Origin: Collinsella sp.
Lineage (GTDB): Bacteria > Actinomycetota > Coriobacteriia > Coriobacteriales > Coriobacteriaceae
Direction: 5' to 3'
DNA length: 64,000 bases
Assembly (NCBI GenBank): GCA_052281595.1
Contig: DAWBRY010000004.1
Span: 67,854-131,853 of the forward strand
In this document: positions 1,087 to 20,258 of the stretch, piece by piece
Layout: each line of letters starts with the position of its first letter
Position numbering within the stretch: position 1 is the stretch's first letter
The notes under the pieces: model-generated
The model's database searches: none
Told to the model about the DNA's origin: nothing
Seen by the model: the letters and a program-made list of their open reading frames with translations, nothing else
Position numbers and translations under genes: made by a program

Positions 1087-2031
1087 ATGGAGCACATCGT
1101 CCTCGAATATGACGAGAGCACGCGCACCGCGCTCGTCGTCGCCACGTCCAACAAACGCGAGCCCGTCCTGAGCGGGCACGCCTCGCCCTACATCGTCGCC
1201 GACGGATACGATTTCGAGTCCCGTTCCTGGGGAGCCGGGCACTACTTCACCGATATCGCCGCGGCCAAGATCGACTACGAGCGCTCGTGCCGCCATTCCT
1301 ATCCTCTAGCGGAGGGCAGGCTGCGCGATGACGAGTTCTGCACGATCCGCTGGTGCCGCGAGGATGTCGCCACCGCGCTCTCCGAATACCTCTCCTACCC
1401 CATCCCCGCCACCAAAAAGAATATCGATGACGTGGTCGGTCAGCTCATGGCGCACGGCAGCTTCCAGGACCGCTCCATCGAGGACGGCTGGGAGACCATC
1501 AGCGCCATCATCGACGAGGATGCGCTCGACCTTGGTCTCTCGACAAAACAGGGCGTGGACTTCTACAGGGATGCCTTCGGGCACTGGAACTCCACCGAGG
1601 CCATCGTCTGGCCGAGCAGCGAGGGTGACGCCGCGTTCGTCATGGCGGTACCCGCCGACAGCGAGGACGGCGACCTTGCTGTCTACAAGATCGATGCCTG
1701 CCTCATCGGGGACGACGAGATCACCATCGACGATATCGAGCGACTGGGCGGCAAACGCGAGCTGTGCGTGTACAAGCACGGCTTCGACGGCATCGAGGCC
1801 ATCCGCAACTTCGCCAACCGCGTCGCGGTCGATAGGTTCGATGAGCGTTTCGGGGTCAACAACCTGTACGGCGAGTTGCCCGATCTCGCCCCGACGCTGC
1901 GCAAGGTGACCGAGGGTGCCCGCACGGCCGTGCAGCAGCCCCGCGACCCGCAGGCCATCGCCGCGGCCGCGCTGTCGGCCGCCGAGGGCGGCGCGAAGAC
2001 CGCCGTCGAGCACGTCGGCAACAAGCACTGA
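1087..2031 (+). CDS. Array cargo protein, family A. Has an N-terminal 'HIVLEYDE…PYIVADGYD…W…DI..AKI.YE…EGRL.DDEF…RW.R.D…YPIPATKxNID' domain and the conserved C-terminal tail.
   Basis: RBS AAGGAG 7 nt upstream of ATG 1087. N-terminal domain shared with ORFs 2091, 2717 and 3732. Tail …AAAALSAAEGGAKTAVEHVGNKH. Confidence 0.7.
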   Translation: MEHIVLEYDESTRTALVVATSNKREPVLSGHASPYIVADGYDFESRSWGAGHYFTDIAAAKIDYERSCRHSYPLAEGRLRDDEFCTIRWCREDVATALSEYLSYPIPATKKNIDDVVGQLMAHGSFQDRSIEDGWETISAIIDEDALDLGLSTKQGVDFYRDAFGHWNSTEAIVWPSSEGDAAFVMAVPADSEDGDLAVYKIDACLIGDDEITIDDIERLGGKRELCVYKHGFDGIEAIRNFANRVAVDRFDERFGVNNLYGELPDLAPTLRKVTEGARTAVQQPRDPQAIAAAALSAAEGGAKTAVEHVGNKH

Positions 2032-2090
2032 GTTCACTTTGCCGCGGCGGGCGGTTCCTGCCGCGGCGCTTTTCGTTTGGGAGTTTCAAC

Positions 2091-2675
2091 ATGGATGGAA
2101 CCATCGATTTCATCGTCCTCGAGCACGACGACGTCGCCGGGTGCGCCCTCATCGCCGGTGCCGTCGACGGGGTCGTGCCTGCCATCGACGGGCACAACAC
2201 GCCCTACATCGTCGCCATGGGATACGACCATCCGACCCGCAACTGGGAGGACTGCACGCTGTTCGACGACATCGTGAAGGCGAAACTCGCCTACGAGGGA
2301 TTGCGCGGGCGGGAATACCCGCTTGACGTGGCCATGCGCAGGGACGATTCCGCCACGTTGAATGCCCGCGCGCTCACCGATGCGGAGCTCGCAATCGAAA
2401 TCGAGAAGGCGGGCGCCGCGATGGTCGAGCATGTCGATGCCCATATGGCGCATGTCCACGGCCTCGGCGGCAGCGAGGACGACAGCGCCGCATACTACGC
2501 CGCCCGGAAAAGGCACGCGGACCTGAGGCTCGAGAAGGACCGCAGGCTCCACGCATCGATAGATCTCGGACAGAGGGAAGGTCCACGCGAGCCGCAAGCC
2601 ATGGCCGCAGCAGCCGCCAAGGCCGCGCTGAAACGCGACGGGGTCGAGCTCGGACGAAGCGGCAAGAAACAATAG
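2091..2675 (+). CDS. Array cargo protein, family A. Short form: N-terminal domain plus tail only.
   Basis: MDGTIDFIVLEHDD…PYIVAMGYDHPTRNWEDCTLFDDIVKAKLAYE. The tail is …AAAAAKAALKRDGVELGRSGKKQ. Confidence 0.65.
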   Translation: MDGTIDFIVLEHDDVAGCALIAGAVDGVVPAIDGHNTPYIVAMGYDHPTRNWEDCTLFDDIVKAKLAYEGLRGREYPLDVAMRRDDSATLNARALTDAELAIEIEKAGAAMVEHVDAHMAHVHGLGGSEDDSAAYYAARKRHADLRLEKDRRLHASIDLGQREGPREPQAMAAAAAKAALKRDGVELGRSGKKQ

Positions 2676-2716
2676 GACCGCCACACCGCCCGCGGCAATA
2701 TGATTGGAGTATCGAA

Positions 2717-3682
2717 ATGGAGACCGTCCCGCATGTCGTCCTAGAGTATGGCAAATGGAGCGATTGCGCGCTGGTCGCGCTGACCGACGACGCCCACTCG
2801 GCAGTGCGCGACGGCACCGACATGCCCTATCTCGTTACGAGCGGCTACCACCGCGGATCGCGCACCTGGGCCAGGGCAACACCGTTCGGCGACATCACGC
2901 GCGCCAAGGTCGTCTTCGAGCACCGTGTCGGCCGCGACTACGCCCCCAACGAAGGCAGGCTCCACGACGACGAGGTCATCGCCTGCCGCTGGCGCCGTGG
3001 CGATATCGCCGGGGTCCTGGAGGAGTCGCTTGACTATCCCATCCCCGCGACGAAGGAGAACATCGATACCGCTATCGGGCAGATCGCGCATGTGCAGGAC
3101 CGCCTCATCGAGGATGGATGGAGGGAGATCGTCGATTCCATCCGCGAGGAACGTCTCGACCTCGGTCTCGGCAGCTCCCAGGCGGATAACTTCTACAGGG
3201 GCGTCTACGACGTGACCGCGCACCATAATTCGATGTTCTGGCCGTCGGGCGACGGCAGCGCGGTGCATGTGTCCCATTGCCGCCTGGGAGACGGCCCCTC
3301 GTTCGGGCTCACCGTCCGAACGATCCCGGCCGCGGCCATCGGCAACGAAACCGTCACCTTCGAGAAGATCGACCGATTGGGCGGGAAAATCGAGCTTTGC
3401 GTGGATAGCATCGATCAGGACATCGAGAAGGTCCGCGCCTTCGCCAGCTCATCGCCCGCCGTCCGCGCCTTCGTCGAACCCCTTTGCGCCTATATCCCGG
3501 CACCGAGCGATTCGGTCGGGGAGCAAAAGCGCGACATCTCGCCCTACCTGCGGCAGACCGCGCGGCGCTGCCAGCGCATCTCGCACCCGATCGACCCGCC
3601 AGAGACGGCATCGGCGGCGGCGAGCGCCGCATTCGGCGGCGCGGCGGCCCTGCCGGCACATCGCGGGTATAAGCACCAATAA
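2717..3682 (+). CDS. Array cargo protein, family A.
   Basis: METVPHVVLEYGKW…PYLVTSGYHRGSRTW…YPIPATKENIDTAIGQIAH. The tail is …ASAAASAAFGGAAALPAHRGYKHQ. Confidence 0.7.
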   Translation: METVPHVVLEYGKWSDCALVALTDDAHSAVRDGTDMPYLVTSGYHRGSRTWARATPFGDITRAKVVFEHRVGRDYAPNEGRLHDDEVIACRWRRGDIAGVLEESLDYPIPATKENIDTAIGQIAHVQDRLIEDGWREIVDSIREERLDLGLGSSQADNFYRGVYDVTAHHNSMFWPSGDGSAVHVSHCRLGDGPSFGLTVRTIPAAAIGNETVTFEKIDRLGGKIELCVDSIDQDIEKVRAFASSSPAVRAFVEPLCAYIPAPSDSVGEQKRDISPYLRQTARRCQRISHPIDPPETASAAASAAFGGAAALPAHRGYKHQ

Positions 3683-3731
3683 CCAGCGACGGACACCTGC
3701 TTCCGCCGCCCTATCCGTTAGGAGACCCAAC

Positions 3732-4700
3732 ATGAACGACAAGCTGGACCATTTCGTGCTCGAATACGACGATGCGAGCGGTAACGCGCTGCTCGCGATG
3801 ACCGAGGGCGACGGCAGCCTCATCGCGGACGGCGCGGGCCTTCCGTATGCCTTGGCCCGCGGCTACGACGCGAATGCACGCACCTGGGAGTCGATCGAGC
3901 CCTTCGACGACGTGACGCGCGCCAAACTCCACTACGAGAAGGCCTGCGGACGCGAGTACGTGCCCACCGGCGGCAAGCTCTACGATGACGAGTTCATCAC
4001 GCTCCGGTGGCGGCGTCAGGACATCGCCGACTCGCTCGAGTCCGATTTCGGTCACTTCGGCGTGCCCATCCCCGCGACCGATGAGAATATCGAGCGCGCG
4101 TTGGATCAGCTCGGTAACCACATCGACGATGCGATCTACGAGGCGGGTTGGGACGTTATCCACGACCGCCTCGATGTCCGCTCGTTTGACCTGGGGGTCG
4201 GACACAGCAAACAAGCCAAGGAGTTCTACGAGCAGGTCTTCGAGTGCGACGGCGACTTCTATCCCACCGTCAACGTCTGGCCCGCGGTCGACGGCAGCGG
4301 TGTGCACGTCTCCGTCTGCCCCGTCACTTTCGCAGAGCGCGACCTGGCCGTCTACAAGGTCGACGCCGGCAAGATCGGCGATGGACCCATCACGATCCCC
4401 GACCTCGATGACATCGGTACGCGCGAGGTCCATGTCGACGATTTCACCGAGAAGCCCGAGGAGGTGCGCCTCTTCCTGCGTACGGACGGCGACGTGTACC
4501 TGTTCGGGTCCAGCCTGGGCAAGTCGCTCGCCGTCGAGGATGCGGACGAGGAGGATATCGCCTACGCCCTGCGCGAGGTGCGCACCTACTGCAAGGACGC
4601 TACCGAGAAGCGCGACCCGCAGCTCATCTGCGCCAAGGCCCAAGCCGCCGCGGCCAAATCGGCCACGGCCGAGGGCGATGCCGGCGGCAAGAAGCTCTAG
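3732..4700 (+). CDS. Array cargo protein, family A.
   Basis: MNDKLDHFVLEYDD…PYALARGYDANARTW…VPIPATDENIERALDQLGNH. The tail is …AKAQAAAAKSATAEGDAGGKKL. Confidence 0.7.
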   Translation: MNDKLDHFVLEYDDASGNALLAMTEGDGSLIADGAGLPYALARGYDANARTWESIEPFDDVTRAKLHYEKACGREYVPTGGKLYDDEFITLRWRRQDIADSLESDFGHFGVPIPATDENIERALDQLGNHIDDAIYEAGWDVIHDRLDVRSFDLGVGHSKQAKEFYEQVFECDGDFYPTVNVWPAVDGSGVHVSVCPVTFAERDLAVYKVDAGKIGDGPITIPDLDDIGTREVHVDDFTEKPEEVRLFLRTDGDVYLFGSSLGKSLAVEDADEEDIAYALREVRTYCKDATEKRDPQLICAKAQAAAAKSATAEGDAGGKKL

Positions 4701-4706
4701 CGCGCC

Positions 4707-6323
4707 ATGGCCACCCCGACCGTCCGAACGGTAAACGCGCAAAACCAAAACCATCTGGTCCATGCCGCCTCGAACGAGGCGGGATGGCGACGCTATCTCG
4801 AGACGCTTTCCAGGCACACGGGATGCGCCAACGCCTTCTACAACCTGTCCGCGATGAACTGTGCGGGGCTCGCCGCATCCGATTGGCACGAATCCCGCGA
4901 GATCCTGCCCATCGCCACATGGAAGTCCCTCTTCCCCGGCGCGGACATCAAGCCCGCCGACGGGTGCACGGGCGTCTACTGCGTCAAGTCCAGGCCGCGC
5001 GGCTCGGGCGGCGGGCTGTTCTATGTCGACGAGCTGTTCCCGCCCGCGCTTCTCGTGGGACTGCCTCCCACGATGCTCAGGGGCGCGGCCCGCGTTCTCG
5101 ACCTCTCGGTCGATATCGCGGCGGCGTCATGGAGCGATGCCGAGGCCGGGCTGTACCGTATAGTCAACGTCGCCGATATGGACAGCGACACCGACGCGGC
5201 CCCGGAGGCTGAGCGCGTGCCGGTCGCATGGGTCGACCTCGATCAGAACACCCGCTTCGTCATCGAGGCGCACTTCCGCGCCCAGGGTCCCGGGTGCGCC
5301 AGCCCCGTGCTTCCGCCCGACGACGTGAAGGGCAAGGCCTCCTCGCTCAAGATGTACGTCAACGAGATCGTGAAGACCGCGGCGCCCCTCATCAAGCAGA
5401 TGCGCAACGGCTACCGCGCGGCCTTCGAGAGGCACCGCCGCGACGTCATCCCCGAAAGCGGCCCAGATAGGGATAACGGCCCCGATGCCGCCGTCGGCGG
5501 CGCCGGGGCGAAGGCGGGGGACGTGCAGGAACCCCACCCCGACGAAGGCGGCGGCCGGCCCGCACCGGTGGAAGCCAAGGAAGACCGCGGCGGCCCGGGC
5601 GTCTATGTGGGCAACCTCGCGCGGGAGCCCATCGAGAGGGCCATGAGGGCGATCGGCAGACACTCCAGGGCGGATGGCGATCGGGTGGATATGGAGACCG
5701 CGGCCTCCCCCTCTTCGGAAACCGCCGGGGATGCCGGCGCTATCGGCCGACACTTCGCGCGGAAGGGCGAAACCGTTGACTCCCCCGTGGCCGGCGACCA
5801 GGTCGGGAGCCGTAAGGGGACGGATGTCGAGACGGTTTCCCGCCCGGAGGCCCCTCCCGTGCCGTTGCGGGCCGCAGGGACCGACGATGGAGGCCCCGAC
5901 GTGAAATCAGGTCGGGAAACAGTCGGAGATACAGGCGGGGCCGTACCGGCCAGAGAGGTCGGGCGGCCCGCAGAGTCGCGCACAGAGGCCCGTGAGCGCC
6001 GACGGGAGCGCCTGGGGCGACACGGACGGCCGTCCGAGCGCGGTGCGGACGATGGCGGAGAGGTCGATACCATGCGCCCGCATGGGCGGCGCTACCGCCG
6101 CATGGATGGCGAGGACGCGGACGGCAACGGTCCCGAGCTCCATGCGATGCGCCGGCGGCGCGCCGGCGAGGCCAAGCCCGCGCCCGAGGCGCCGCCCGAG
6201 AAGTACTATCCGCACGGCCGCCCGCCGCGGGAGACCGCGGGGCACGCGAAGAGCGCCGCGGCCCGGACCGCGAAGGACCGCGGAAAGAAGAAGAAACCGC
6301 CGACGGGCAAGGGCTCGTCGTAA
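4707..6323 (+). CDS. Hypothetical protein with a long disordered Arg/Gly/Asp-rich C-terminal half ending in KKKKPPTGKGSS.
   Basis: 538-aa ORF. The N-terminal ~250 aa look globular. The C-terminal half is low-complexity and basic. Confidence 0.45.
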   Translation: MATPTVRTVNAQNQNHLVHAASNEAGWRRYLETLSRHTGCANAFYNLSAMNCAGLAASDWHESREILPIATWKSLFPGADIKPADGCTGVYCVKSRPRGSGGGLFYVDELFPPALLVGLPPTMLRGAARVLDLSVDIAAASWSDAEAGLYRIVNVADMDSDTDAAPEAERVPVAWVDLDQNTRFVIEAHFRAQGPGCASPVLPPDDVKGKASSLKMYVNEIVKTAAPLIKQMRNGYRAAFERHRRDVIPESGPDRDNGPDAAVGGAGAKAGDVQEPHPDEGGGRPAPVEAKEDRGGPGVYVGNLAREPIERAMRAIGRHSRADGDRVDMETAASPSSETAGDAGAIGRHFARKGETVDSPVAGDQVGSRKGTDVETVSRPEAPPVPLRAAGTDDGGPDVKSGRETVGDTGGAVPAREVGRPAESRTEARERRRERLGRHGRPSERGADDGGEVDTMRPHGRRYRRMDGEDADGNGPELHAMRRRRAGEAKPAPEAPPEKYYPHGRPPRETAGHAKSAAARTAKDRGKKKKPPTGKGSS

Positions 6324-6337: not shown

Positions 6338-6751
6338 ATGGTTGAAAGACTCGAGGCGGCGGCCGAGGCCGGCGCCGAATACTACATGGTGACGGTCTCC
6401 GAGTCCGTCACCTTCAGCTATCCCGCGCTCGCCACGGACGCCGAGGCCGCCCGCGAGAAGGTCGCCGCGCTCATCGAGGCGGGACGCGTCCGCGCTCCGC
6501 TCGACCTGGTCGGGGCGCCGTGCCGCCGCGAGGGAATCGAGGTCGTGGATGCCGTGGAGTCCGAGGACCTGAGCTGTAGGCAGGTCTGCGCCCAGACGCT
6601 CATGCCGGGCGAGGCCGAACGGCTCGTCGACGACGTCGAGGCCGGAAAGCTCTACGAGAAGACGCCTCCGCAGATGGCGCATGCCGCCAAGTCGATCCTC
6701 AAGAAGACCGGCTCGGGCAAGCTGACGCCGACCAAGCGGCAGAGGAAGTAA
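6338..6751 (+). CDS. Small hypothetical protein with a tail variant (…AAKSILKKTGSGKLTPTKRQRK).
   Basis: RBS TAAGGAGA upstream of ATG 6338. Followed by hairpin ggggttcccgttcgggaacc at ~6755. Confidence 0.5.
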   Translation: MVERLEAAAEAGAEYYMVTVSESVTFSYPALATDAEAAREKVAALIEAGRVRAPLDLVGAPCRREGIEVVDAVESEDLSCRQVCAQTLMPGEAERLVDDVEAGKLYEKTPPQMAHAAKSILKKTGSGKLTPTKRQRK

Positions 6752-6859: not shown

Positions 6860-8562
6860 ATGGATGAGCACGAAGAGAATTTCAAGGATATTTTCAGATA
6901 TACCGATGTGGAGTACACGCCCGACGGCTATACGGACGTGTACCGCTGGGACGATTTCCTCGTGATCGCGGGCGACCACGTCTACAGCGCCATGGATACC
7001 ATCGATTCGGTTTCCCCCGGCGGCGAGTACGAGGGTTCGACCCGCAATATGCCTACACCTGCGAGATCGTCGGGTGCGGCGATCTGTTCGACGGCTGCGC
7101 GCTGTTCCGTCCGGTGTCCCACGACGGGGAGGACTATACCCAAATCGCCTTCCTGCGCAGCGACATCGACGATTCCACCGGGGAGTATACCGAACGTTTC
7201 GAGGCCGGGTCGTTCGATATGCCCGCTGCCGATGCCTTGCGTTTCGACCTCGCCGTCGATCTTATGGATTATTTCAGCGGCAGGACGTTCGAGGGCGAGC
7301 CCGGCGTGAGCCGCGGTCTCGAACCGCGCGAGGCCGTCGCCGCCGTGGAGGGAGCCACCGGCTGCGACCTCAATTTCTTCGAAGACTTTTGGCTCGGCTC
7401 TCCCGGCGAGATAGTGGAGAGCGTCCACGTCGGTCCCTATACGAAGCAAAGCCTTCTCGACTTCTCGTATTATGCCAAGGAGCTGTCGCGCAGATACGGG
7501 TTCGCCGATAGCGATATCCTCGAAATCGCCCGCCACCTGCCTGAGGAATGCCCCGACCGCTTCGCGGCGGTAAAGGCCTACCTCGATTGCGAGTACGTGC
7601 CGGACGGCGATGCGCCCGACGAGAAGACCTACCGCTGGGGCGACTTCCTCGAGATTGCCGGCGGGGACGCCCGCTACGCGGCCATGCTCGTCGACAGGAC
7701 CGCGGCGGGCGAGTCCGAAGAGGGCCTTCACCCCGAGACGCTTGTCGACCAGGACATCCGCGACGGCGAGGCCTTCATGCTCGCCGGGCGGCCCATCGCC
7801 CCGGAGGACGCCTACGACCTGCCCGGAACCGTCCACGGACTCTATAAGGAGCTCGCGGACAACGTCGACCGCTCCGGCATGCTCTTCCGCGACTGGCGCG
7901 GCTTTGCCGCCGGCACCGATGCGGACGATGTGCTGCGCGCGATCGAGGCCGCGTTCGGCGAGACCGAGTACAGCCGCGCGGGCACCGTGCTCGGCGCCTA
8001 TGCCGACGACACGTTCATGTCGCCTCTTCATGTTGCGCAGGATGCCCCGCGCGACGTCACGCCGCTCACGCCCTGGGAAGACGAGGACGGGGTGGCGTTC
8101 CTGTCGCGCACCCTTGATGCCGATGCGGGCGCGCCCGTCCCCTGCCTGTGGTACTGCATGCGCGACGGGGAGCAGGGCTTCGAGGTCGGCGGCGTCAAGC
8201 TCGACTGCTCGAAAATCGGCTTCGACGAGGTCTCCGCGGCGGCGGCCTCCAACGGCATCGACAGCGTCCTCGCCTATCTCGGGGAATCCCCCCGCGGCCT
8301 TGAACCGCTGTGCGATATCGCCGTGCGCCGTGTCGATGCCGGGATGCCCGATACGGTCAGACACTTCGGCAGCCAGGACGAGGCCATGGCGATGCTCGGC
8401 GCGATAACGGGATGCAGGGTCCAGGCCTACGGCATCGACACGCTCACCTACCGCGCCTCGCTCGGCAACGCCGCGGCGGCGAAGCTCGCCGCGGGGGCGC
8501 TCGCGATGAACGATCGCCTCAGCGGGCGCGGTGACGCGGTCGAGGCCGGGCGCCGTCTCTAG
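6860..8562 (+). pseudogene. Frameshifted cargo gene. An N-terminal segment (6860-~7035, frame 2) continues in frame 1 to 8562, and there is an internal domain duplication.
   Basis: Frame 2 reads …DIFRYTDVEYTPDGYTDVYRWDDFLVIAGDHVYSAMDTIDSVSPGGEYEG. Frame 1 then reads FDPQYAYTCEIVGCGDLFDG… continuously to 8562. The segment KAYLDCEYVPDGDAPDEKTYRWGDFLEIAGGDARYAAMLVDRT in the downstream part repeats the N-terminal motif. There is a single ±1 shift near 7031-7040. Confidence 0.45.
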
Positions 8563-10850: not shown

Positions 10851-10966
10851 GGTTTACTTTACCGGTTGCAGCCCTTCCCATTCGGGAAGGGCTGTTTTCG
10901 TGCCGGGGTGTTGTGGGTAGCATCTTCTCTGATTCTGACCGGCTTTCGTTTTGGAGCTGATGATCT

Positions 10967-13348: not shown

Positions 13349-14242
13349 ATGGCGGCGAAACAATACGAACTCGGTTCGAATGTCCTCGATTGGTATAGGG
13401 ATTTCTGCCCGGGGAACAGCTTCCAGGTGGTGATTCGTCCCGATATCACGTTCGCAGACGTCGTCGTGGGCATGGCGAACGGTGTCGATTTGAACAACCT
13501 TATCGGTTCCGATAGCGAGATCTTCGGCAACATCGTGGTCGCGAAATTGGCCGAGATCACCGGAGAGAGCTACGAGACCGTTTCAAATGTCTGGCATGAG
13601 GCGCCGATGAATAGCGATTACATCGGCGAGGACGAGCGGCGCCTCATTGAGGCCGCCAAGCTCGTGATCGAACCCAGATCTAGGCGAATTACCACTGTCG
13701 ATATCGATTTCGGCAAGGCCTTCAGCATCGCAAATCACGCTATGCTGAACGAGATCATGCCATCCTTTGACGACCCTGCTCTCTACGGTATCGCTGAGAG
13801 AGTCCTACCAAATCTCGAGTGGCGCACCGATTCTATTGCTATCGATGCCATCAATGAGCTCTGTTGCGATCGCTACGCCGAGCACTATGACCTCGAGGCC
13901 GTTCGGAGCCATGCCACCGAACTGTTCGCAGCCTGCCAGGTCCAGTTGGCGTTCATACAGGCGGACCTCGTTTTTCAAGCGCTCGACTGGACGATTCCGG
14001 CGACGGATAGGGTTCGTTTCGGATCCGTCTATACCTCGGATCCGTATTCACGTCGTTACATCTCGACTTGTTGCCTTGGTGCATTTAGCCACCCTCGTTT
14101 TACCGTCGCCAGAGAGGCCGTTGCCGATATCGAGAAGCGAAGCAATGCCAAGAACAGCCCAACTAACATAGTTGCGGCGGCCAAGAAGGCGGCCGGCGCC
14201 GACGTGTCGGCCGATGGGGCCGGCAGCGGCAAGCATATCTAG
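13349..14242 (+). CDS. Array cargo protein, mosaic. Its N-terminus resembles ORFs 10967 and 14370, and its middle resembles ORF 11819. It carries the conserved tail.
   Basis: RBS GGAGCTG 9 nt upstream. The tail is …AAAKKAAGADVSADGAGSGKHI, with diverged nucleotides but conserved amino acids. Confidence 0.65.
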   Translation: MAAKQYELGSNVLDWYRDFCPGNSFQVVIRPDITFADVVVGMANGVDLNNLIGSDSEIFGNIVVAKLAEITGESYETVSNVWHEAPMNSDYIGEDERRLIEAAKLVIEPRSRRITTVDIDFGKAFSIANHAMLNEIMPSFDDPALYGIAERVLPNLEWRTDSIAIDAINELCCDRYAEHYDLEAVRSHATELFAACQVQLAFIQADLVFQALDWTIPATDRVRFGSVYTSDPYSRRYISTCCLGAFSHPRFTVAREAVADIEKRSNAKNSPTNIVAAAKKAAGADVSADGAGSGKHI

Positions 14243-14369: not shown

Positions 14370-15590
14370 ATGAGCAAGAAGCATTTCAATTTCAAGTCTA
14401 GTATCCGCGATTGGTATATCCGGGCCTTTCCATCCGATGAGCTCGGTTACAGGATCAACCCGCTCGCCACCTTTGCCGGCGCCGTGAAATGCATGGCGGA
14501 CGGAGGCGACATCTATAAGTATCTCGGCGTCGGGGACTCCCTGGTGCGCGAGAACGTATTCTCCAAGATCGCCGCCATCACGGGCGTGGATTACGATGCC
14601 GTATACGGCCTTTGGCTTCATCATGACGAAGACGAGTGCAGCAGACTGGTCTTCCTCGGCGACCATCCGGACTGCGCCGTAGATCGCGACTGGCGGGAGC
14701 AGTTCGATGAGGTGGTCTCCCCTTCCGAGCAAGTGCGCTATGACGAGATGCTTGCAGCCGAAGAGCAGCGCAAGGCCGAGACGTTCGATTCGTTCATGGA
14801 GGTCAACGAGACTCCCATGGACGAGGTGCGAAGCGCCGGGATCGCGATGGTTCTCATGCAGGGCATCGTTTTCGCGGAGATCGCCAAGAAGATCGATGGG
14901 CCAAGCGAGGAGCTGAACGAACGCATCGCGACCTTCAACCACGACCTCAAGCGCCTCTACAACGAACCGCTCCACAAGAAGGTGGAACAAATCGAGAACC
15001 AGGTCGGAAAGCTGGAGGAGAAGGCGGCCATATACGACGAGATGCGCTATACCGCCGAGCATACCGATCCGGCGGATATCCGAATCGCAGAGGGCAGCAC
15101 CAGCATGACCGGCGCATTGATGGCCGCCGCGATGGCGAGCTACGACCTGTCATGCGGTCTTATCGACGATGAGCACATCGGACGATACAGCGACGTCATC
15201 ACCGCCCTCGAGGAGCGCATGGGGGTCGGTGCCGGCGGACTCTCCGTCCAGACCGAGGCGGGCGAGCTCATCGCCAACGCCAAGGAGGACGGCATCAGCG
15301 TCGGCATCAACATCCCCGGCGGCAAATGCGCGGATATCGCCTTCGTCGATGCGGACCCGGGCGCCGACGACCTCTACCCGACACCCGTTCGCGCCTTCAC
15401 CTACAACGGCCGCGACGAGGAGCCCGATCACCGCACCGACGTGCATCTCGACGGGGACATGGTGCTCGATGGACAGATGACTGCCGAGACCCCCGCGCAT
15501 GTACCCGCCGATATCACCGCGGCTGCCAAGGAGGCCGCCGCCAAGAGCGTCAAGCCCGACACCGTCGGAACCGACGGCATCAAGCACTAG
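14370..15590 (+). CDS. Array cargo protein, mosaic. Its C-terminal domain 'AGEL.A…GISV.IN.P.GK…DDYPTPV..FTY.G.D.EP.HRTDVHLDGD' is shared with the N-terminus of ORF 17313. It carries the conserved tail.
   Basis: 406 aa. The tail is …TAAAKEAAAKSVKPDTVGTDGIKH. Confidence 0.65.
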   Translation: MSKKHFNFKSSIRDWYIRAFPSDELGYRINPLATFAGAVKCMADGGDIYKYLGVGDSLVRENVFSKIAAITGVDYDAVYGLWLHHDEDECSRLVFLGDHPDCAVDRDWREQFDEVVSPSEQVRYDEMLAAEEQRKAETFDSFMEVNETPMDEVRSAGIAMVLMQGIVFAEIAKKIDGPSEELNERIATFNHDLKRLYNEPLHKKVEQIENQVGKLEEKAAIYDEMRYTAEHTDPADIRIAEGSTSMTGALMAAAMASYDLSCGLIDDEHIGRYSDVITALEERMGVGAGGLSVQTEAGELIANAKEDGISVGINIPGGKCADIAFVDADPGADDLYPTPVRAFTYNGRDEEPDHRTDVHLDGDMVLDGQMTAETPAHVPADITAAAKEAAAKSVKPDTVGTDGIKH

Positions 15591-15605
15591 GCGGGAGGCA
15601 TAGCC

Positions 15606-16556
15606 ATGGAAGAGACCTATCAGCTCATCGAGGGGTCGCCGACGCTGCGCGACCTGGACGCGGAGAACGGCTTCCTCTGGTGCCCGTTCGGGCACTCGGG
15701 GCGCCAGAACGAGCCGGGTATCCTGATCAGCCGCCTCGATGACGGCAGCTACGACGTGAGGCTCGGGACCGGGTTCGACAGCCCCGAGCGCTTCGCGACC
15801 GGGGACCCCGATTGGTCCTGGATGGACTTGTCCGTGGCCTCCACCGTGGAGCTCACCTTCGCGGACGACATGGCGCTCAACGACTGGATCGCGAGCGAGA
15901 CGACCGCCACCGGCGCCGCATGGGCTCGATGCTTCAACCCCTATTGCGGTCCTGACGAGAAGACATTGAACACCTCTGAAATCATCGATACGCTTAGGCG
16001 CTTCGAGAGCCCTTCGTATATCGTGCGCGGGCCCATCGAGGATATCGAGAGCCTACCGGTCGGGTACTACTGGTGCCCGGATGCACTCGACCCCGACCCG
16101 TCCTATAACGGCTACCTGCTGAACGTGTTCGCCGGCTTTGACGGCCGTGGGCTCCCTGGCAAGTTCTTCGAGCTCTTCGGCGGGGTCACGCTGAACGACG
16201 TGCCCTCCTTCGGGTTCGACGACGGCTGGGACGGCTCGTGCCTCAACCGCCTCGACTGGTTCGAGGACGCTGCGGGCATGGACGCCGACGGGCTCTCCGC
16301 CGGGCTCGTGGCGAACGACGCCGAATCCATCAAGGCCCTCATCGGGAACTGCCCCGCCTGGATCGAGTGCTTCCCCTCGTACAGCGAGAAGGCCGCCAAG
16401 GGCGTCGACGATGCGGTCCAGGCCGTGAAGGCGTATCGATTGGAAGGCAAAAGGGTACACAGGGAGGTAATCCCCGGGTATCTCTATGAGACTGCGAAGG
16501 CCGCCGCGGCCAAGACCGCCGGCGGGGCCGATGGCGGCACCGGGCCCCATATCTAG
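15606..16556 (+). CDS. Array cargo protein with the conserved C-terminal tail.
   Basis: 316 aa. The tail is …AKAAAAKTAGGADGGTGPHI. Confidence 0.6.
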   Translation: MEETYQLIEGSPTLRDLDAENGFLWCPFGHSGRQNEPGILISRLDDGSYDVRLGTGFDSPERFATGDPDWSWMDLSVASTVELTFADDMALNDWIASETTATGAAWARCFNPYCGPDEKTLNTSEIIDTLRRFESPSYIVRGPIEDIESLPVGYYWCPDALDPDPSYNGYLLNVFAGFDGRGLPGKFFELFGGVTLNDVPSFGFDDGWDGSCLNRLDWFEDAAGMDADGLSAGLVANDAESIKALIGNCPAWIECFPSYSEKAAKGVDDAVQAVKAYRLEGKRVHREVIPGYLYETAKAAAAKTAGGADGGTGPHI

Positions 16557-16569
16557 GAAGGCGATCTGC

Positions 16570-17313
16570 ATGGACTACTTCTCCCGTAAACCTGACTTCC
16601 CCACCTTCGAGGATATCTATATCGCCCGCGCGCAGGGAGCCATCGAGCTCGAGCGGCGCGGCGACGAGGTCGCCTGCCGCTTCGGCCCGGACGGCCCCGC
16701 CTTCATGCTCCCCCAGGGCGCAACCCGGGGCGATATCATCCGGGGCTGCCTCGCCTGCGACGGCATCGTCGAGGTGTTGAAGGGCGATCCGGGGATCCGT
16801 GTCGCGTGTGCCGGGTGGCTGGACTCGTACTTCACCGAGGTCGCCGATCGGGCCCCCGTCGGGGAGACCTGCGGCGCCGACTGCCTTTTCGCATGCCATG
16901 TCGATATCGACGGCATCTACGCGGAGCGCACCGGGGACCCAGACGGGCTTCGCGCCTACTGCGACCCGATGGGGGTCGGCTGGAACTACGGCCCGATCTA
17001 CTACTTCCCGCGCGAGTCCATCGAGCAGGTGGTCGGGCAGCTGTGCGAGGACGGGGACGATTTCCCCGTCCTGTTTGACGGGGAGCGCGTGATCGAGGCT
17101 TTCGACGGCACGCCCGTTCACATGTCGGTGCCCGTCGAGGTCGACGGCGAGAAGGTGTGGACCTGCGGCTACGACTTCTGCTGGTGCGAGACCGTCGCGC
17201 CCGATTTCAGCCGCGCGCGGGGGCACTTCCCCGACGCGACCGTGGCCGCCTGGGCTGCCGCGCGGAACGTGAATCAATCTGATGGCGATTTGGGCCTCAA
17301 GGAGCGTATGTGA
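16570..17313 (+). CDS. Array member lacking the tail. It is Cys-rich (CxxC pairs).
   Basis: RBS GGAAGG before ATG 16570. Translationally coupled to the next gene (…ATGTGATG). It ends …DLGLKERM with no tail. Confidence 0.5.
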   Translation: MDYFSRKPDFPTFEDIYIARAQGAIELERRGDEVACRFGPDGPAFMLPQGATRGDIIRGCLACDGIVEVLKGDPGIRVACAGWLDSYFTEVADRAPVGETCGADCLFACHVDIDGIYAERTGDPDGLRAYCDPMGVGWNYGPIYYFPRESIEQVVGQLCEDGDDFPVLFDGERVIEAFDGTPVHMSVPVEVDGEKVWTCGYDFCWCETVAPDFSRARGHFPDATVAAWAAARNVNQSDGDLGLKERM

Positions 17314-18116
17314 TGAACGAGTCCATTTCCGTAATGACCGATGCCGGCGAGCTTGTCGCCACGCCGTTCGCAGGCGGCATCAGCGTCGATATCAACCTGC
17401 CCGACGGCAAGGGCAGCGGCCAGCTTGCGTTCATCGAAGCCGCACCGGAAGGGCTTCGCGATGACTACCCGACGCCTGTCCACGTGTTCACGTATGACGG
17501 GCTAGATTCGGAGCCGGTCCATCGCACGGACGTGCATCTCGACGGGGATGCCATGACGCTCGATCCCGTGAAGGGCGCGGCGGCACGCAATGGCGCCGAT
17601 ACGGGATATAGGCAGCTGGATTCCGATTTTGTCAACGCTTCCAACAGTTGGGATGAGGTATACGGGTTCATCAAACGTTCCGACCCCAATTCCACGGGTA
17701 TGCCCGCGAGTTTCGACTATGCCCTGCTCGCACTCGATTCCAACGGATGGCATTTCGGTGAATCGAATGCGAGCGCCTTTGATATCCCCGCCAAGGACCT
17801 CGATTTCTTCCTGGGTATCTTCTACTGCTCAAGCATTTCGGAATTTGCTGCGTATGCTTCTGAGTGCAACGAGCCCGATTTCCAGGAATGGCTCTGCTCG
17901 ATGTATCTCCGCGACCAGGTGGAAGACCGTCTCCGCCACGAAATATCTTGCAATTGCATACAATCGACCGTTGACGCCTTCAAACTGCTTTCCGATAAGA
18001 TCGGTTTCGAGTTCGAGCCTGAAAACAATCCCGCAAATGTCGCCAAGGCCGCCAGTGCGGCGGCAGTGCGTTCGGTCGGTTTCGGCTTGAGCGAGGCCGA
18101 GGGCATCAAACACTAG
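17313..18116 (+). CDS. Array cargo protein. Its N-terminal domain is shared with the C-terminus of ORF 14370. It carries the conserved tail.
   Basis: RBS AAGGAGCG 8 nt upstream. The tail is …AKAASAAAVRSVGFGLSEAEGIKH. Confidence 0.6.
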   Translation: MNESISVMTDAGELVATPFAGGISVDINLPDGKGSGQLAFIEAAPEGLRDDYPTPVHVFTYDGLDSEPVHRTDVHLDGDAMTLDPVKGAAARNGADTGYRQLDSDFVNASNSWDEVYGFIKRSDPNSTGMPASFDYALLALDSNGWHFGESNASAFDIPAKDLDFFLGIFYCSSISEFAAYASECNEPDFQEWLCSMYLRDQVEDRLRHEISCNCIQSTVDAFKLLSDKIGFEFEPENNPANVAKAASAAAVRSVGFGLSEAEGIKH

Positions 18117-18220
18117 GGTCTGGCATATGACGCCCCTTCCCGTTCGGGAAGGGGCGTTCTCGTGTGGGTCACCGGCGGGTAGCATCGATGGGGACAACCG
18201 TTTCCCTGGAGGTGCCGAAT

Positions 18221-19546
18221 ATGGCCGATATGAATGCAAGCGACAGCGCAATCTCTACCGATGACCTCGAGATCGACAGCTATGACGACGTCGTGAAGCT
18301 GCTCGGCGCCGACGATGCCGCCTCGATGCTCGCCGATGTCGCGGGCAACCGGTTCAACCGGGAGGATATCATGAGGGCCATCCTGAATGGCGAGGATATC
18401 CATCTCGATTACTGGCCCGATTACGAGGAGCTTGAGTGGGCGACTCGCGTCTGCGGCGAACTGCTCGCCGACACCTCGCTCGAATGGGCCGATGGTTTCA
18501 TCGACGCGGAGAAAATCGAGACGCACGAGGGGCTGACTGTCAGCGACCTTTCCCATGCCGTGGAATGCGTGCTGACGGATAAGTTCAACGACGGGCTCTA
18601 CGAGGCGAGCCTTGTGGACCGTACCGAAATCGCCGATACGCTCGCTCAGGAGATCAAATCGCGACTCGACGGCGGTAAGCTCGGCCATGGGCCCTATGTC
18701 GACAGCGAATCGCTGCGCGACGACCTGACCGAGCGGTTCGGGTTCTTCTACGATATCGATTTTAGCGGGCTCACCTTCAAGACCTCGCTCATACTGTCCG
18801 TCAAGAGCCTGTATTTCGAGGGTGACGTCGTCGATTCCGCGCTCGACTGGCAGGCGGATTACCTCCCGTGCGTCTGCCACAGGGGCGGCCAGGGTGAGAA
18901 CGATAGGTGGGAGTATGAGCCCACCGACGACTACAGGCCGTTCACGCGTCCCGCGGACATCCCCGAGAGCATCTTCGACAAGCTGTGCGCCTCGCAGGGC
19001 ACGACCATCGAGAAGGTCGTCAACGACCCCGTTACCAAGTTCGAGCGCAGCTTCCGCGAGGATATCTTCAACTCGCAGCAGAACTCGCTCGTCGGTCTCA
19101 CCGTCCTGGCAACCCTGCCTCTCGATGCGTTCCTGGACGCCAGCCTCTCGATGATCTGCCGCGGCGACCGCGAGAAGGCGGGAACGTTCACGGTCAAGCC
19201 CGGCACATACGAACCAATCATGGGCATCTACGACCCCATCAACGGGTGCGGCGGCACCGCGGGCATCGAACTCGACACGGACTTCGATATCGACCCGCGT
19301 GACATCAAGTACACGATGATGGAACCCAGGGGCGGGAAGTGGGAATCCGACCGCATCGATCTCTATACCCCGCAGGATTGCTTCGGGTTCTCCGAGCCCT
19401 TTGCCGGGCGTATCGAGTATTCCGAGAAGAAGCCCAAGATCGCCGCGAAGGCGAAGCCCGATCCCGCCGACCTCGGACGCCGCGCGAGTGTCGCGGCCGG
19501 TGCTACCATCCGCGACGGTGTCGATGGCGGCGGGATCAAACTGTAA
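18221..19546 (+). CDS. Array cargo protein with the conserved C-terminal tail.
   Basis: RBS GGAGGTG upstream of ATG 18221. Preceded by the intergenic cassette. The tail is …AAGATIRDGVDGGGIKL. Confidence 0.6.
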   Translation: MADMNASDSAISTDDLEIDSYDDVVKLLGADDAASMLADVAGNRFNREDIMRAILNGEDIHLDYWPDYEELEWATRVCGELLADTSLEWADGFIDAEKIETHEGLTVSDLSHAVECVLTDKFNDGLYEASLVDRTEIADTLAQEIKSRLDGGKLGHGPYVDSESLRDDLTERFGFFYDIDFSGLTFKTSLILSVKSLYFEGDVVDSALDWQADYLPCVCHRGGQGENDRWEYEPTDDYRPFTRPADIPESIFDKLCASQGTTIEKVVNDPVTKFERSFREDIFNSQQNSLVGLTVLATLPLDAFLDASLSMICRGDREKAGTFTVKPGTYEPIMGIYDPINGCGGTAGIELDTDFDIDPRDIKYTMMEPRGGKWESDRIDLYTPQDCFGFSEPFAGRIEYSEKKPKIAAKAKPDPADLGRRASVAAGATIRDGVDGGGIKL

Positions 19547-19556
19547 GGGGAACACC

Positions 19557-20258
19557 ATGGCCGACCGAGATGCCAAACGCAAGAGGCCCATCACTTGCCT
19601 GGAAACCGGGGTAACCTTTGAGTCCGCCTATCGGGCGGCCAAGGAGCTCGGCTTCGCCGACTCGCGCAACATCTTCCGCTCCATCCAGCGCGGCACCTGC
19701 ACCCAGGGGCTGCATTTCTACTACGCCGATGCGCCGAAACCGTCGCCGGGGTTCTTCCTGCCTCCCAACAGGCCACCGCGTCCGGTGGTATGCCTCGACA
19801 CCGGCGAGACGTTCGAGTCGGCATTCCAGGCGGGCCGCGCGTTCGGCATCGCCGCCGGGGCCGTGCGCACATCGGCCAGCACGGGCGTCGAACGCAACGG
19901 GCTCCACTTCTATTACGGCGACGAGCCGAAACCGGGCCCGGAGTTCTTCAGGGAACGACATTCGAAGACCAGGCCCATCGTCTGCCTGGAAACCGGCGAG
20001 ACCTTCGACGGCAACCCGGCCGCCGCGCGCCCCCTGCACGTATCGCCCGCGACCATCAGCCAGGCCGTTCGCTACGGAACGCCCGTCGCCGGGCTCCATT
20101 TCTACCATGGAGACGAACCGAAGCCGGCTCCGGAGTTCTTCAAGCCGATCAAGCCCGAACGCGGTAAGAGCCCTATGCAGATGGCTGCCGCGGCTAGGGC
20201 CGCCGCGGGGAACCCGGGTCGCCCGGACGGTGGCCAGCGGCCCCGACGCGCGGTATAA
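19557..20258 (+). CDS. Protein with three tandem ~55-aa repeats of a small DNA-binding-type module, resembling the C-terminal DNA-binding repeats of phage homing endonucleases.
   Basis: Three repeats: PITCLETGVTFESAYRAAKELG…GLHFYYADAPKP, PVVCLDTGETFESAFQAGRAFG…GLHFYYGDEPKP and PIVCLETGETFDGNPAAARPL…GLHFYHGDEPKP. RBS AAGGGGA. The tail is a variant: …AAAARAAAGNPGRPDGGQRPRRAV. Confidence 0.55.
   Translation: MADRDAKRKRPITCLETGVTFESAYRAAKELGFADSRNIFRSIQRGTCTQGLHFYYADAPKPSPGFFLPPNRPPRPVVCLDTGETFESAFQAGRAFGIAAGAVRTSASTGVERNGLHFYYGDEPKPGPEFFRERHSKTRPIVCLETGETFDGNPAAARPLHVSPATISQAVRYGTPVAGLHFYHGDEPKPAPEFFKPIKPERGKSPMQMAAAARAAAGNPGRPDGGQRPRRAV

Follow-up and report, generated by a model that had tools for sequence, protein, structure and literature searches.

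The window, by which we mean the whole 64-kb stretch of DNA that was analyzed, contains an array of 19 co-oriented plus-strand genes (12–20258). Gene boundaries follow the existing gene calls of this contig. A shared C-terminal module is clear in 14 of the 19 encoded proteins (194–461 aa) and present as weaker variants in the other five. The array consists of the following:

12..968, plus strand: first array gene, 318 aa; weak tail at 882–965 (PGTQARGAKRAAGSSARDGAAGRGPAL), Pro at −27
1087..2031, plus strand: family-A gene, 314 aa; tail at 1945–2028 (PQAIAAAALSAAEGGAKTAVEHVGNKH), weak in the leave-family-out test
2091..2675, plus strand: family-A short gene, 194 aa; tail at 2589–2672 (PQAMAAAAAKAALKRDGVELGRSGKKQ), beating 300 of 300 shuffles
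2717..3682, plus strand: family-A gene, 321 aa; weak tail at 3596–3679 (PPETASAAASAAFGGAAALPAHRGYKHQ)
3732..4700, plus strand: family-A gene, 322 aa; tail at 4614–4697 (PQLICAKAQAAAAKSATAEGDAGGKKL)
4707..6323, plus strand: 538-aa protein with a long disordered basic C-terminal half; end loosely tail-like
6338..6751, plus strand: 137-aa gene; weak tail (PPQMAHAAKSILKKTGSGKLTPTKRQRK), Pro at −27/−28
7114..8562, plus strand: 482-aa very acidic protein; weak tail without Pro (NAAAAKLAAGALAMNDRLSGRGDAVEAGRRL)
8773..9708, plus strand: orphan gene, 311 aa; tail at 9622–9705 (PGEAASAAKKAAGCSGGDGAGDAGAIKL)
9732..10850, plus strand: orphan gene, 372 aa; tail at 10764–10847 (PSAQAEAAKAAATKMVSGETGGGKHI)
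10864..10943, plus strand: intergenic cassette boundary, 80 nt; GC hairpin, U-run, then GGGTAGCATC
10967..11788, plus strand: family-B gene, 273 aa; tail at 11702–11785 (PDAMAAAAKKAAGAKVSAGVDGGGKHI)
11837..13222, plus strand: mosaic gene, 461 aa, alternative start at 11819; tail at 13136–13219 (PAEIAASAKKAAGAKVSAGVDGGGKRI)
13349..14242, plus strand: family-B/C gene, 297 aa; tail at 14156–14239 (PTNIVAAAKKAAGADVSADGAGSGKHI)
14370..15590, plus strand: mosaic gene, 406 aa; tail at 15504–15587 (PADITAAAKEAAAKSVKPDTVGTDGIKH)
15606..16556, plus strand: orphan gene, 316 aa; tail at 16470–16553 (PGYLYETAKAAAAKTAGGADGGTGPHI)
16570..17313, plus strand: 247-aa gene; degenerate tail (PDATVAAWAAARNVNQSDGDLGLKERM), Pro kept at −27
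17313..18116, plus strand: mosaic gene, 267 aa; tail at 18030–18113 (PANVAKAASAAAVRSVGFGLSEAEGIKH)
18221..19546, plus strand: orphan gene, 441 aa; tail at 19460–19543 (PADLGRRASVAAGATIRDGVDGGGIKL)
19557..20258, plus strand: basic protein, 233 aa, with three internal repeats; tail at 20172–20255 (PMQMAAAARAAAGNPGRPDGGQRPRRAV)

The shared tail had been described in an initial annotation, whose quoted tails and listed gene starts are all correct, although the module spans about 27–28 residues rather than about 20. Since its upper size of 477 aa came from an over-long ORF (3267–4700; the called gene, 3732–4700, encodes 322 aa), the proteins range from 137 to 538 aa. Its gene at 11819 is the same as that at 11837, the two being alternative in-frame starts. 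The weak variants that it named at 12 and 6338 are indeed weak; our weak set comprises the genes at 12, 4707, 6338, 7114, and 16570 and does not include the gene at 19557, also named there. Further copies of the cassette boundary lie at 13247, 14268, and 18126.

The module starts with a Pro 27–28 residues from the C terminus, which caps an Ala-faced helix (P-x-x-φ-x-A-x-A-K-x-A-A) with small residues along one face (φ, A, A, A at i, i+4, i+7/8). A flexible Gly/Ser/Asp linker of ∼10 residues follows, and the protein then ends in G-[GI]-K-[HKR]-[ILH], a basic-hydrophobic free C terminus (KHI, KRI, KKL, and IKL are among the endings). The Pro is at exactly −27 or −28 in 17 of the 19 array proteins, and P, A13, and A17 are invariant across 30 diverse tails. 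In AF2 models, the tail is predicted to form a helix and then run into a disordered end, as at 3732 (helix 296–308, then a disordered stretch) and at 13349 (pLDDT 79, all-alpha body, helix 271–283, disorder 283–297).

The bodies that carry this module are heterogeneous, forming at least four mosaic families plus singletons; that of 1087 is a paralogue of 2091, 2717, and 3732. They are acidic and soluble, while the tails are neutral to basic (median pI 4.58 for the array versus 5.87 for the 42 other window genes, p = 8e-4). None of the array proteins has a match in Pfam, PHROGs, NCBIfam, PADLOC, or PDB, and the suggestion that they might be anti-defense cargo is not borne out, as none matches a known anti-defense, anti-restriction, or defense family. 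The exact 12–968 protein was found in 545 blocks of the sequence collection, and the 4707 protein is highly conserved between elements.

To score each tail, we used an HMM trained only on tails from proteins lacking body homology to the one scored, with 300 composition-preserving shuffles per tail as controls. Fourteen of the 19 tails outscore all 300 shuffles; the score of 4707 was matched by 1 of 300 and that of 7114 by 5 of 300, and the tails of 1087, 2717, and 16570 were inseparable from shuffles in this test. In a six-frame translation of the window (103,858 aa), all full matches to a motif model, trained on the same 14 tails, are at the extreme C terminus of array ORFs. The tail is absent from the 42 other window genes. 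One of these had been called a diverged copy, which does not hold up:

58680..59732, minus strand: 350-aa protein whose C terminus has the helix-like part only (PASIAAVARKAAASS...), then a longer extension; E 0.16–0.23, not significant

Could the tail be a functionless leftover of serial duplication that gene conversion keeps alike, or a by-product of high GC content, as Ala and Gly are common because the genome is 64% GC? Recombination does occur inside the tails. In the 10967/11837 pair, 19 of 23 codons are identical where 10.8 would be expected, which looks like recent gene conversion; this had been proposed for the pair on the basis of an identical 48-nt 3′ end, although the ends match at 47 of 48 nt (CAT versus CGT). 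In all other pairs, however, synonymous sites are randomized. Across the 14 tails, positions with identical residues (n = 879) use the same codon 396 times, versus 391.7 expected from codon usage alone. Since synonymous codons are fully randomized between tails, conservation is at the protein level and not due to recent duplication, as had been argued. In orthologue comparisons, which are mutually non-independent, dN/dS is 0.43 for the tail and 0.34 for the bodies, revealing similar purifying selection; within the tail, it is 0.34 for the helix, 0.62 for the more relaxed linker, and 0.39 for the last five residues. The fixed Pro position and the 42 tail-less window genes also count against a functionless tail, an explanation that we consider very improbable and that codon randomization, tail dN/dS, and the shuffle test largely refute.

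Deletions and hybrid genes arise at 11–12-nt microhomologies inside the tail codons, and these recombinants preserve both reading frame and tag, as in a natural hybrid in L008 in which the 9732 gene bears the 15606 tail. Such microhomologies may let the protein repertoire differ from strain to strain.

An exhaustive HMM search of 1.84 billion representative proteins gave 49 matches at E ≤ 1e-3, 48 of them in these array families and nearly all finishing at the last residue. No other Coriobacteriia protein matched at that threshold; the tail, judged from these sequence matches, is restricted to one element lineage, and it was not found on chromosomal housekeeping proteins. This distribution bears on a second possibility, that the tail is a C-terminal degron read by a host AAA+ protease such as ClpXP, so that the proteins act only briefly, for example after induction or after entry of the element into a new cell. 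An exposed, disordered, basic-then-hydrophobic C terminus common to many unrelated proteins of one operon would suit a degron. The endings also recall RRKKAI, the MuA-type ClpX recognition motif that Flynn and colleagues are said to have described in 2003. However, the final residue is H or Q in 7 of the 19 tails, several more lack a basic-hydrophobic pair, the Pro-capped, Ala-faced helix 15–27 residues upstream and the fixed length are unlike known degrons, and restriction to a single element lineage is unexpected for a host-protease signal. We therefore regard a degron as improbable.

The element is integrated in the chromosomes of Gordonibacter and Collinsella, human-gut Coriobacteriia, and carries a Tad pilus locus, a MobA-type relaxase, NikA, SSB, and ParA. 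The earlier view of a mobile host element is upheld by these features:

29633..32306, minus strand: MobA/VirD2-type relaxase (29633–31693) and NikA (31695–32306), neither tailed
32436..32476, strand not assigned: 19-nt inverted repeat ∼130 nt upstream of nikA, a candidate oriT by analogy with NikA/relaxase systems

Relative to the candidate oriT, the array occupies the relaxase (late-entering) side, with SSB and ParA on the opposite side; by position it is therefore not a leading region, contrary to what had been suggested. Immediately upstream of the array, a DarB-like methylase-SNF2 giant ends in a variant tail (...PDDVAEAARCSAAASVREERDGGEKHKAGM). We looked for the tail on the relaxase, NikA, ParA, and SSB, and it is absent from all four. 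Genes for VirB4, VirD4/TcpA, and other T4SS components were not found in the 64-kb window plus ∼30 kb upstream (∼95 kb of the 131.8-kb contig).

The tail-less relaxase and the lack of a translocon in the ∼95 kb inspected would both fit a docking peptide for a non-secretory partner, which would tether the proteins to one hub in the producing cell without export. The hub could be the methylase-SNF2 machine, a conserved host protein, or a chaperone or scaffold that the element encodes. Such a peptide would equally explain the protein-level selection, the small-residue helix face, and the helix-plus-disorder architecture. Nonetheless, no candidate receptor was identified, the free C terminus is strictly kept although an internal docking helix needs none, and the block is on a transmissible element, adjoining a protein class thought to be delivered (PMC5512222). 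On balance, we consider docking without export somewhat unlikely.

The tail might instead mark proteins for export or packaging by some machine that is not a T4SS: the adjacent Tad-type system working as a secretion piston, a type VII-like ATPase of the FtsK family, or a protein nanocompartment. Directly ahead of the tagged block, in the same orientation, is a complete Tad locus (TadE, TadG-like, CpaB, TadA, TadB, TadC, and DUF192), and in the relative L047, tail-like ORFs are also found upstream of the Tad locus. In addition, the hosts are Actinomycetota, in which type VII signals are C-terminal helices (PMC3935865). However, the tails lack both WXG and YxxxD/E motifs (only 2 of 19 contain Tyr, never in that pattern), bodies of 137–538 aa differ from helical hairpins of ∼100 aa, and in the ∼95 kb inspected we saw neither an EccC/EssC ATPase nor a gene for an encapsulin shell or a capsid. 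To our knowledge, the Tad pilus is not a protein translocator, and we know of no Tad system that exports tagged cytoplasmic proteins. This route appears more improbable still than a degron.

We tentatively favor the reading that the tail, a fixed-length recognition module kept at the protein level, serves this one lineage as a tag for recruitment or translocation. It would be a new address label that most plausibly passes the array proteins on to a shared machine, for which the conjugation apparatus is one candidate. The tail is carried, in one co-oriented block, by ∼20 soluble, strongly acidic, family-less proteins and the methylase-SNF2 giant. Every tagged protein would dock to a single element-encoded receptor, for which we favor the coupling ATPase or an adaptor that receives substrates for the element's conjugative apparatus, and the donor would co-deliver these proteins with DNA into the recipient, a route that has been proposed for polyvalent proteins and demonstrated for those of the F plasmid. 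The interpretation in the initial annotation is thus partly supported.

On one side of the ledger for a tag, we placed codon randomization, purifying selection, the fixed Pro geometry, heterogeneous cargo, and strict C-terminal location; the tailed methylase-SNF2 giant, acidic bodies with neutral-to-basic tails, and the helix-plus-disorder AF2 models; and the presence of relaxase, NikA, SSB, and ParA on the element, frame-preserving tail recombinants, and lineage restriction. On the other side are the lack of a T4SS gene in ∼95 kb, the mismatch between the tail and every T4SS signal described so far, the location of the array on the late-entering side of the candidate oriT, a relaxase, the one certain conjugative substrate, that has no tail, and a block that adjoins a Tad pilus locus.

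How does the tail compare with known signals? ClpX reportedly reads C-terminal motifs of an SsrA LAA type and a MuA RRKKAI type, again from the 2003 work of Flynn and colleagues. The exposed basic-then-aliphatic C terminus of about half of the tails resembles these motifs, but the conserved upstream helix, fixed length, H/Q endings, and restriction to one element lineage do not. We know of no common C-terminal tail in leading-region anti-defense islands. Like those islands (Samuel et al., 2024; PMC11541004), the array groups co-oriented genes for small acidic proteins of poor annotation on a conjugative element; unlike them, it belongs by position to the relaxase side of the candidate oriT rather than the leading side and has no known anti-defense gene.

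Among T4SS substrates, the XVIPCD of Xanthomonas antibacterial effectors is likewise a conserved C-terminal element common to otherwise different proteins and is read by the VirD4 coupling protein (PMC8740702). However, the XVIPCD is a folded domain of ∼120 residues, whereas the tail is a 27-residue linear motif with no sequence similarity to it, and the array has no effector-immunity pairs, because every gene bears the tail. The tail can also be set beside the C-terminal signals of Agrobacterium VirB/D4 effectors, the F-plasmid "conjutome," and pED208, which moves several plasmid-encoded proteins (PMC8406263, PMC11288057). Like the tail, these are short, unstructured, uncleaved, and at the extreme C terminus, are more basic than the carrier protein, and occur on many unrelated proteins of one conjugative element; for the F-plasmid T4SS, positively charged C termini are generic signals (PMC11288057). 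Those signals are loose charge and hydrophobicity patterns, whereas the tail is a module of 27 sharply defined residues, in which the Pro is fixed, the helix has an Ala face, and the final tetrapeptide is conserved, and it contains no Arg-rich R-x7-R-x-R-x-R pattern, E-block, or XVIPCD. The setting also differs, with a monoderm actinobacterial host and no T4SS seen in the ∼95 kb of the element inspected.

Finally, polyvalent proteins, including those with the DarB-like methylase-SNF2 dyad, a class for which delivery with invading DNA has been proposed (Iyer, Burroughs, Anand, de Souza & Aravind, 2017; PMC5512222), also combine diverse, fast-evolving mosaic modules on mobile elements, and the array adjoins a methylase-SNF2 giant, here with the same tail. 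No array body matches a described LPD or effector domain, and the arrangement also differs: modules that in polyvalent proteins are domains fused in one polypeptide are here separate genes, each with its own tag. If the tail is indeed a delivery tag, these separately tagged proteins would be the unfused counterpart of one giant polyvalent protein.

The 19 co-oriented genes called on the plus strand between positions 12 and 20258 (each named here by its start) encode proteins whose ends are identical to those quoted in the initial annotation. When aligned from the C terminus, the tails have in common a module of fixed length: a proline 27–28 residues before the end (in 17 of the 19), a helix-forming segment (P-x-x-φ-x-A-x-A-K-x-A-A), a Gly/Ser/Asp-rich linker of ~10 residues and the terminal residues G-[GI]-K-[HKR]-[ILH]. 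Across 30 diverse tails from the window and related loci, the proline never varies, nor do two alanines spaced by four residues, and a third alanine is nearly invariant, an arrangement that places φ and the three alanines on one face of the helix.

The remainders of these proteins, which we call bodies, are heterogeneous. Four mosaic families were recognized by BLASTP:

Family A: proteins 1087, 2091, 2717 and 3732 (plus strand)
Family B: N-terminal ~85 aa of 10967, 13349 and 14370 (plus strand)
Family C: middle parts of 11837 and 13349 (plus strand)
Family D: C-terminal part of 14370 and N-terminal part of 17313 (plus strand)

All other array bodies are singletons in the same comparison. None of the 19 proteins matched Pfam, those tested against PHROGs, NCBIfam and PADLOC gave nothing, and three searched against PDB sequences had no match. 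In the AF2 model of 13349, an all-alpha body (pLDDT 79) precedes a low-confidence tail helix (residues 271–283) and a disordered end; the family-A model, though poor (pLDDT 62), has the same tail architecture. Fold searches with array models, including family A, yielded no meaningful match. The array proteins have a median pI of 4.58, compared to 5.87 for 42 other window genes (Mann-Whitney p = 8e-4), with neutral to basic tails on markedly acidic bodies. No signal peptide or membrane segment was found in them: the Kyte-Doolittle mean over 19 residues is at most 1.65, and there is no N-terminal hydrophobic segment.

Several genes stand apart within the array. The last (19557–20258) is basic (pI 9.2), unlike the others, and carries a 64-aa unit in three copies (192-nt period), with weak matches of the I-TevI DNA-binding and NUMOD1-like types. 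The 538-aa protein encoded at 4707–6323 is conserved between elements far above its neighbors; across the loci seen, its last 40 residues show one difference at most, and its C-terminal half is a long disordered region rich in Arg, Glu, Gly and Pro. GC content is 0.547 across 12001–14000 (genes 11837 and 13349) versus 0.62–0.69 on either side, which suggests that these low-GC cassettes may have been acquired from a different background.

To score each tail independently of its body, an HMM was trained for each protein only on tails lacking body homology to that protein, with 300 shuffles of the protein's own last 40 residues as the null. Fourteen of the 19 tails scored above every shuffle, confirming, by the HMM of tails that the initial annotation had proposed, its claim of a shared module. 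The tails of 4707 (1/300 shuffles) and 7114 (5/300) were borderline, and those of 1087, 2717 and 16570 did not separate from their 300 shuffles in this test. When the window was translated in six frames (103,858 aa), the full motif, modeled on the same tails that were found, matched only at the extreme C termini of array ORFs. Other called genes of the window, including those for the relaxase, NikA, ParA, SSB, AbiE, Fic and the pPIWI proteins, lack the tail. A supposed diverged copy at 58680–59732 did not hold up, as this minus-strand gene has just the helix-like part in common with the tail, and the match falls short of significance.

Is the resemblance a product of duplication or of selection? 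In pairwise comparisons of the 14 clear tails, the same codon was used at 396 of 879 aligned same-residue positions, close to the 391.7 expected from codon usage; synonymous sites are therefore fully randomized, and the likeness is kept at the protein level. The exception is the pair 10967/11837, with 19 of 23 codons identical (10.8 expected), which appears to reflect recent conversion. Gene conversion had been proposed initially for this pair and stands, but the identical 48-nt 3′ end claimed with it does not, since 47 of the 48 final nucleotides match. Pooled Nei-Gojobori comparisons of the window with five related Gordonibacter and Collinsella loci (L010–L014), which share ancestry and hence are not independent, gave dN/dS values of 0.43 for the whole tail and 0.34 for bodies; within the tail, values were 0.34 for the helix, 0.62 for the linker and 0.39 for the last five residues. 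By this measure, the helix and terminus are constrained as much as the folded parts. The randomized codons and the tail dN/dS bear out the earlier claim of protein-level selection, and the tail-versus-body comparison suggested with that claim shows that the tail is not neutral. One could suppose that the tail has no function, given the converted pair and the high GC (64% for this metagenomic contig), but the codon randomization, the tail dN/dS, the shuffle test and the fixed proline make this hard to credit. We also considered that the GGN-GGN-GGN-AAR codons might be kept as the ribosome-binding (Shine-Dalgarno) site of the next gene. This was rejected, as most downstream starts lie 40–360 nt away and codon use is randomized.

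When 1.84 billion representative proteins were searched exhaustively with the tail profile, 49 matched at E ≤ 1e-3, of which 48 are array families or their chimeras and truncations and one is a false positive, a repeat protein. In nearly all of the 48, the match extends to the final residue. At this stringency (~35 bits needed), the tag is therefore limited to one element lineage; tails on chromosomal housekeeping proteins, which the initial annotation had regarded as evidence against its reading, were absent from these matches. A word-indexed search with the tail profile recovered only fragments of 32–70 aa and deletion minigenes and carries little information on distribution. Scanning species-representative genomes revealed syntenic arrays in Gordonibacter sp. 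28C, G. pamelaeae CCUG 55131 and three Collinsella MAGs, at 75–82% identity; the nearest family-A match in locus L014 is 37% identical. Homologs of 13349 come from metagenome-derived sources only, and human-gut assemblies matching the window include ena:ERZ28581901 scaffold_34 (131,745 bp) and ena:ERZ548770 NODE_25 (131,855 bp). The element turns up very often in human gut metagenomes; single proteins are listed in 545 (the first array protein) and 7354 (a 111-aa SSB-like protein at the right edge of the window) blocks of the collection. No match was obtained in a megablast of positions 1–20000 against PLSDB plasmids and INPHARED phages, in tblastn of a family-A protein against plasmids, in a scan of IMG/VR for relatives or in an Rfam search of the window. 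The tail is a short linear motif at the C terminus, specific to one lineage and selected at the protein level, and its carriers are heterogeneous soluble proteins encoded by a mobile element. It is very probably a genuine shared recognition tag; the identity of whatever reads it we infer.

Array gene content varies between contigs. In the related locus L008, one hybrid joins the 1087 body to the 3732 tail and another joins the 9732 body to the 15606 tail, each with loss of the intervening genes; the crossovers lie in 11–12-nt identities inside tail codons, CGCGACCCGCAG and GCGAAGGCCGC. Metagenomes contain gene fusions, some with remnants of a tail inside them, and numerous in-frame deletion minigenes, in which the beginning of an array gene is joined to another gene's tail (fusions and minigenes include P0052, P0073, P0077, P0080, P0039, P0003 and P0112); some of these may be assembly chimeras. 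Two further proteins, P0084 and P0110, resemble assembly chimeras with unrelated genes. Tail-coding DNA thus serves also as a frame-preserving breakpoint, a role that is a consequence rather than a cause of tail conservation because the codons are not conserved. Between array genes, an 80-nt unit recurs at 10864–10943, 13247–13326, 14268–14347 and 18126–18205, with shorter copies after 968, 6751 and 8562. It consists of a terminator-like 12–13-bp GC hairpin with a TTCG-type loop and U-rich run, then a conserved GGGTAGCATC that could be an extended −10 promoter, and it seems to delimit the cassettes of the array.

Upstream of the window is a protein of 1041–2021 aa with ResIII, SNF2 and Helicase_C domains and a weak N-terminal Methyltransf_25 match, the DarB-like methylase-helicase dyad of "polyvalent proteins" (PMC5512222). 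Its C terminus is a tail variant, ...PDDVAEAARCSAAASVREERDGGEKHKAGM, and faint versions occur on two smaller upstream proteins; in a diverged relative, tail-like ORFs lie upstream of the Tad genes. The upstream flanks, two of which come from long-read assemblies full of frameshifts, reached further orphans, adhesin-like genes and, farther out, a complete Tad pilus locus (TadE, TadG-like, CpaB, TadA, TadB, TadC and DUF192). In L006, L008 and L018, this locus is on the same element, is oriented as the array and is preceded by large adhesin-like proteins without a family match. The gene order 3′ of the array is as follows:

20518–23330: AbiE (AbiEi/AbiEii pair) and Fic protein
833-aa protein without a clear family match
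HNH protein and glycosyltransferase
MobA/VirD2 relaxase and NikA
ParA and SSB (SSB at 38444–38869)
45385–52788 and 52852–54696: pPIWI_RE island beside a PIF1-type helicase
HTH_36 protein and IstB-like ATPase

The pPIWI_RE island is complete, with three genes (REase, domain-Z protein, and pPIWI with X, MID and RNaseH domains), and together with AbiEi/AbiEii and Fic is defense cargo of the element. A search with the relaxase found only distant Clostridium MobA matches. Just downstream of it, a minus-strand gene (28616–29629) encodes a 337-aa protein whose acidic end, ...DDDDDYGEDDSMFADLF, resembles an SSB C-terminal tail (the element's own SSB ends ...ADEDIPF) and which may be an SSB-tail mimic. 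A 19-nt inverted repeat at 32436–32476 (89% complementary, 3-nt spacer), ~130 nt upstream of nikA, is a likely candidate for oriT; if NikA/relaxase systems are a guide, entry into the recipient would begin with the SSB/ParA side, and the array would follow late. At the right end of the window (~63514–64000; loci L049–L053), chromosomal genes (SpoU methylase, glycine transporter) adjoin in three independent contigs, and a separate ICE with integrase, VirD4-type coupling protein and TrbL adjoins in a fourth (L050). The element is therefore integrated, and the three chromosomal junctions rule out a circular plasmid, an idea prompted by contigs of almost equal length in different samples. No VirB4 or VirD4 was found in the window or in ~30 kb upstream, together ~95 kb of the 131.8-kb contig; the only VirD4-type coupling protein found is that of the ICE in L050.

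What might the tail do? The reading we favor, tentatively, is that it recruits proteins to the conjugative apparatus for co-transfer with DNA. We favor it because the tag is strictly C-terminal and disordered, is basic relative to the acidic bodies and is also present on the methylase-SNF2 protein, a class thought to be delivered with DNA (PMC5512222), and because the element is conjugative or mobilizable. Moreover, conjugation systems transfer many element-encoded proteins via C-terminal signals (PMC8406263, PMC11288057), and effector repertoires can have one C-terminal recognition element in common (PMC8740702). Against co-transfer, no T4SS was seen in the window or ~30 kb upstream, the relaxase is untagged and the tail is unlike known signals. 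The same sequence features, and the lack of a translocon there, would suit a docking peptide for an intracellular hub, but no receptor was identified and the position is strictly C-terminal, leaving this a somewhat unlikely alternative.

If co-transfer is correct, a still more tentative proposal is that the tail represents the first portable address tag at the C terminus to be defined by sequence for DNA-co-transferred proteins of a monoderm (Actinomycetota) conjugative element. Its ~20 orphan acidic effectors and the methylase-SNF2 enzyme might then form an unfused counterpart of polyvalent proteins that diversifies by frame-preserving recombination in the tag-coding sequence. Known transfer signals are vague charge patterns, and the choice of proteins that travel with DNA in conjugation is poorly understood, with almost nothing known for Gram-positives. 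A sharp 27-residue tag on ~20 proteins would predict the transferred (or otherwise co-recruited) proteome of the element, give a handle for finding the receptor and might be put to use as a delivery tag in engineering Eggerthellaceae and Collinsella, in which genetic manipulation is difficult. In addition, the tag singles out ~20 families without known relatives as candidates for functions in conflict between element and new host.

How does the tail compare with described signals? T4SS signals are positively charged overall or fit an Arg-rich consensus (R-x7-R-x-R-x-R). Like the C-terminal signals of VirB/D4 and F-type systems, the array tail lies at the extreme C terminus, with AF2 pLDDT below 50 over the last ~15 residues; unlike them, the 14 clear tails have net charges of −1 to +3, with Lys and His as basic residues and no Arg pattern, and are basic only relative to the acidic bodies. 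XVIPCD effectors have a folded C-terminal domain of ~120 aa, whereas the array module has 27–28 residues and no Pfam match. Basic-hydrophobic endings characterize the MuA-type ClpX motif. Compared to ClpX-type degrons (LAA-like, RRKKAI-like), 7 of the 19 tails end in KHI, KRI, KKL or IKL and the others in KH, KHQ, KKQ, PHI, PAL, RAV and similar; although several endings thus recall MuA, the upstream helix, the H/Q endings and the restriction to one lineage make a protease degron unlikely.

Type VII substrates combine a WXG helical hairpin with YxxxD/E or H-x3-D/E-x2-h-x3-H at the C terminus; just two of the 19 array tails contain Tyr, never as YxxxD/E, and the bodies span 137–538 aa. Encapsulin cargo carries a C-terminal GSL-type peptide and its HK97-fold shell gene adjoins, whereas no array tail has a GSL motif and neither a shell nor a capsid family is among the Pfam results for window and flanks. 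Export or packaging by some other route (Tad-derived, type VII-like or a compartment) might be considered, since a Tad locus adjoins and the host is actinobacterial, but with no matching motifs or machinery genes it is very unlikely. Sortase, exosortase and rhombosortase signals also differ: sortase-type signals combine a motif, hydrophobic helix and basic end with an N-terminal signal peptide, and the array proteins have neither a hydrophobic helix nor an N-terminal hydrophobic segment.

The initial annotation gave leading-region anti-defense effectors as an example of cargo with a shared tag. A leading-region anti-defense island is not supported here: the array shares the relaxase side of the candidate oriT, which under the orientation rule (taken by analogy) would not be the leading region, and its proteins lack curated Pfam, PHROGs or NCBIfam matches and PADLOC defense-model matches. 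Polyvalent proteins, which carry several effector/LPD domains per polypeptide and commonly a methylase-SNF2 dyad (Iyer et al., 2017), are fitted by the upstream 2021-aa protein, whereas array proteins are single genes without LPD matches. C-terminal tags on effector repertoires are already known as a kind, and, to our knowledge, such signals are undescribed in the host phylum. The initial annotation did not recognize the motif as a described signal, and neither do we; what is new here is a tag distinct in sequence and architecture from every described signal, carried by cargo without known relatives.
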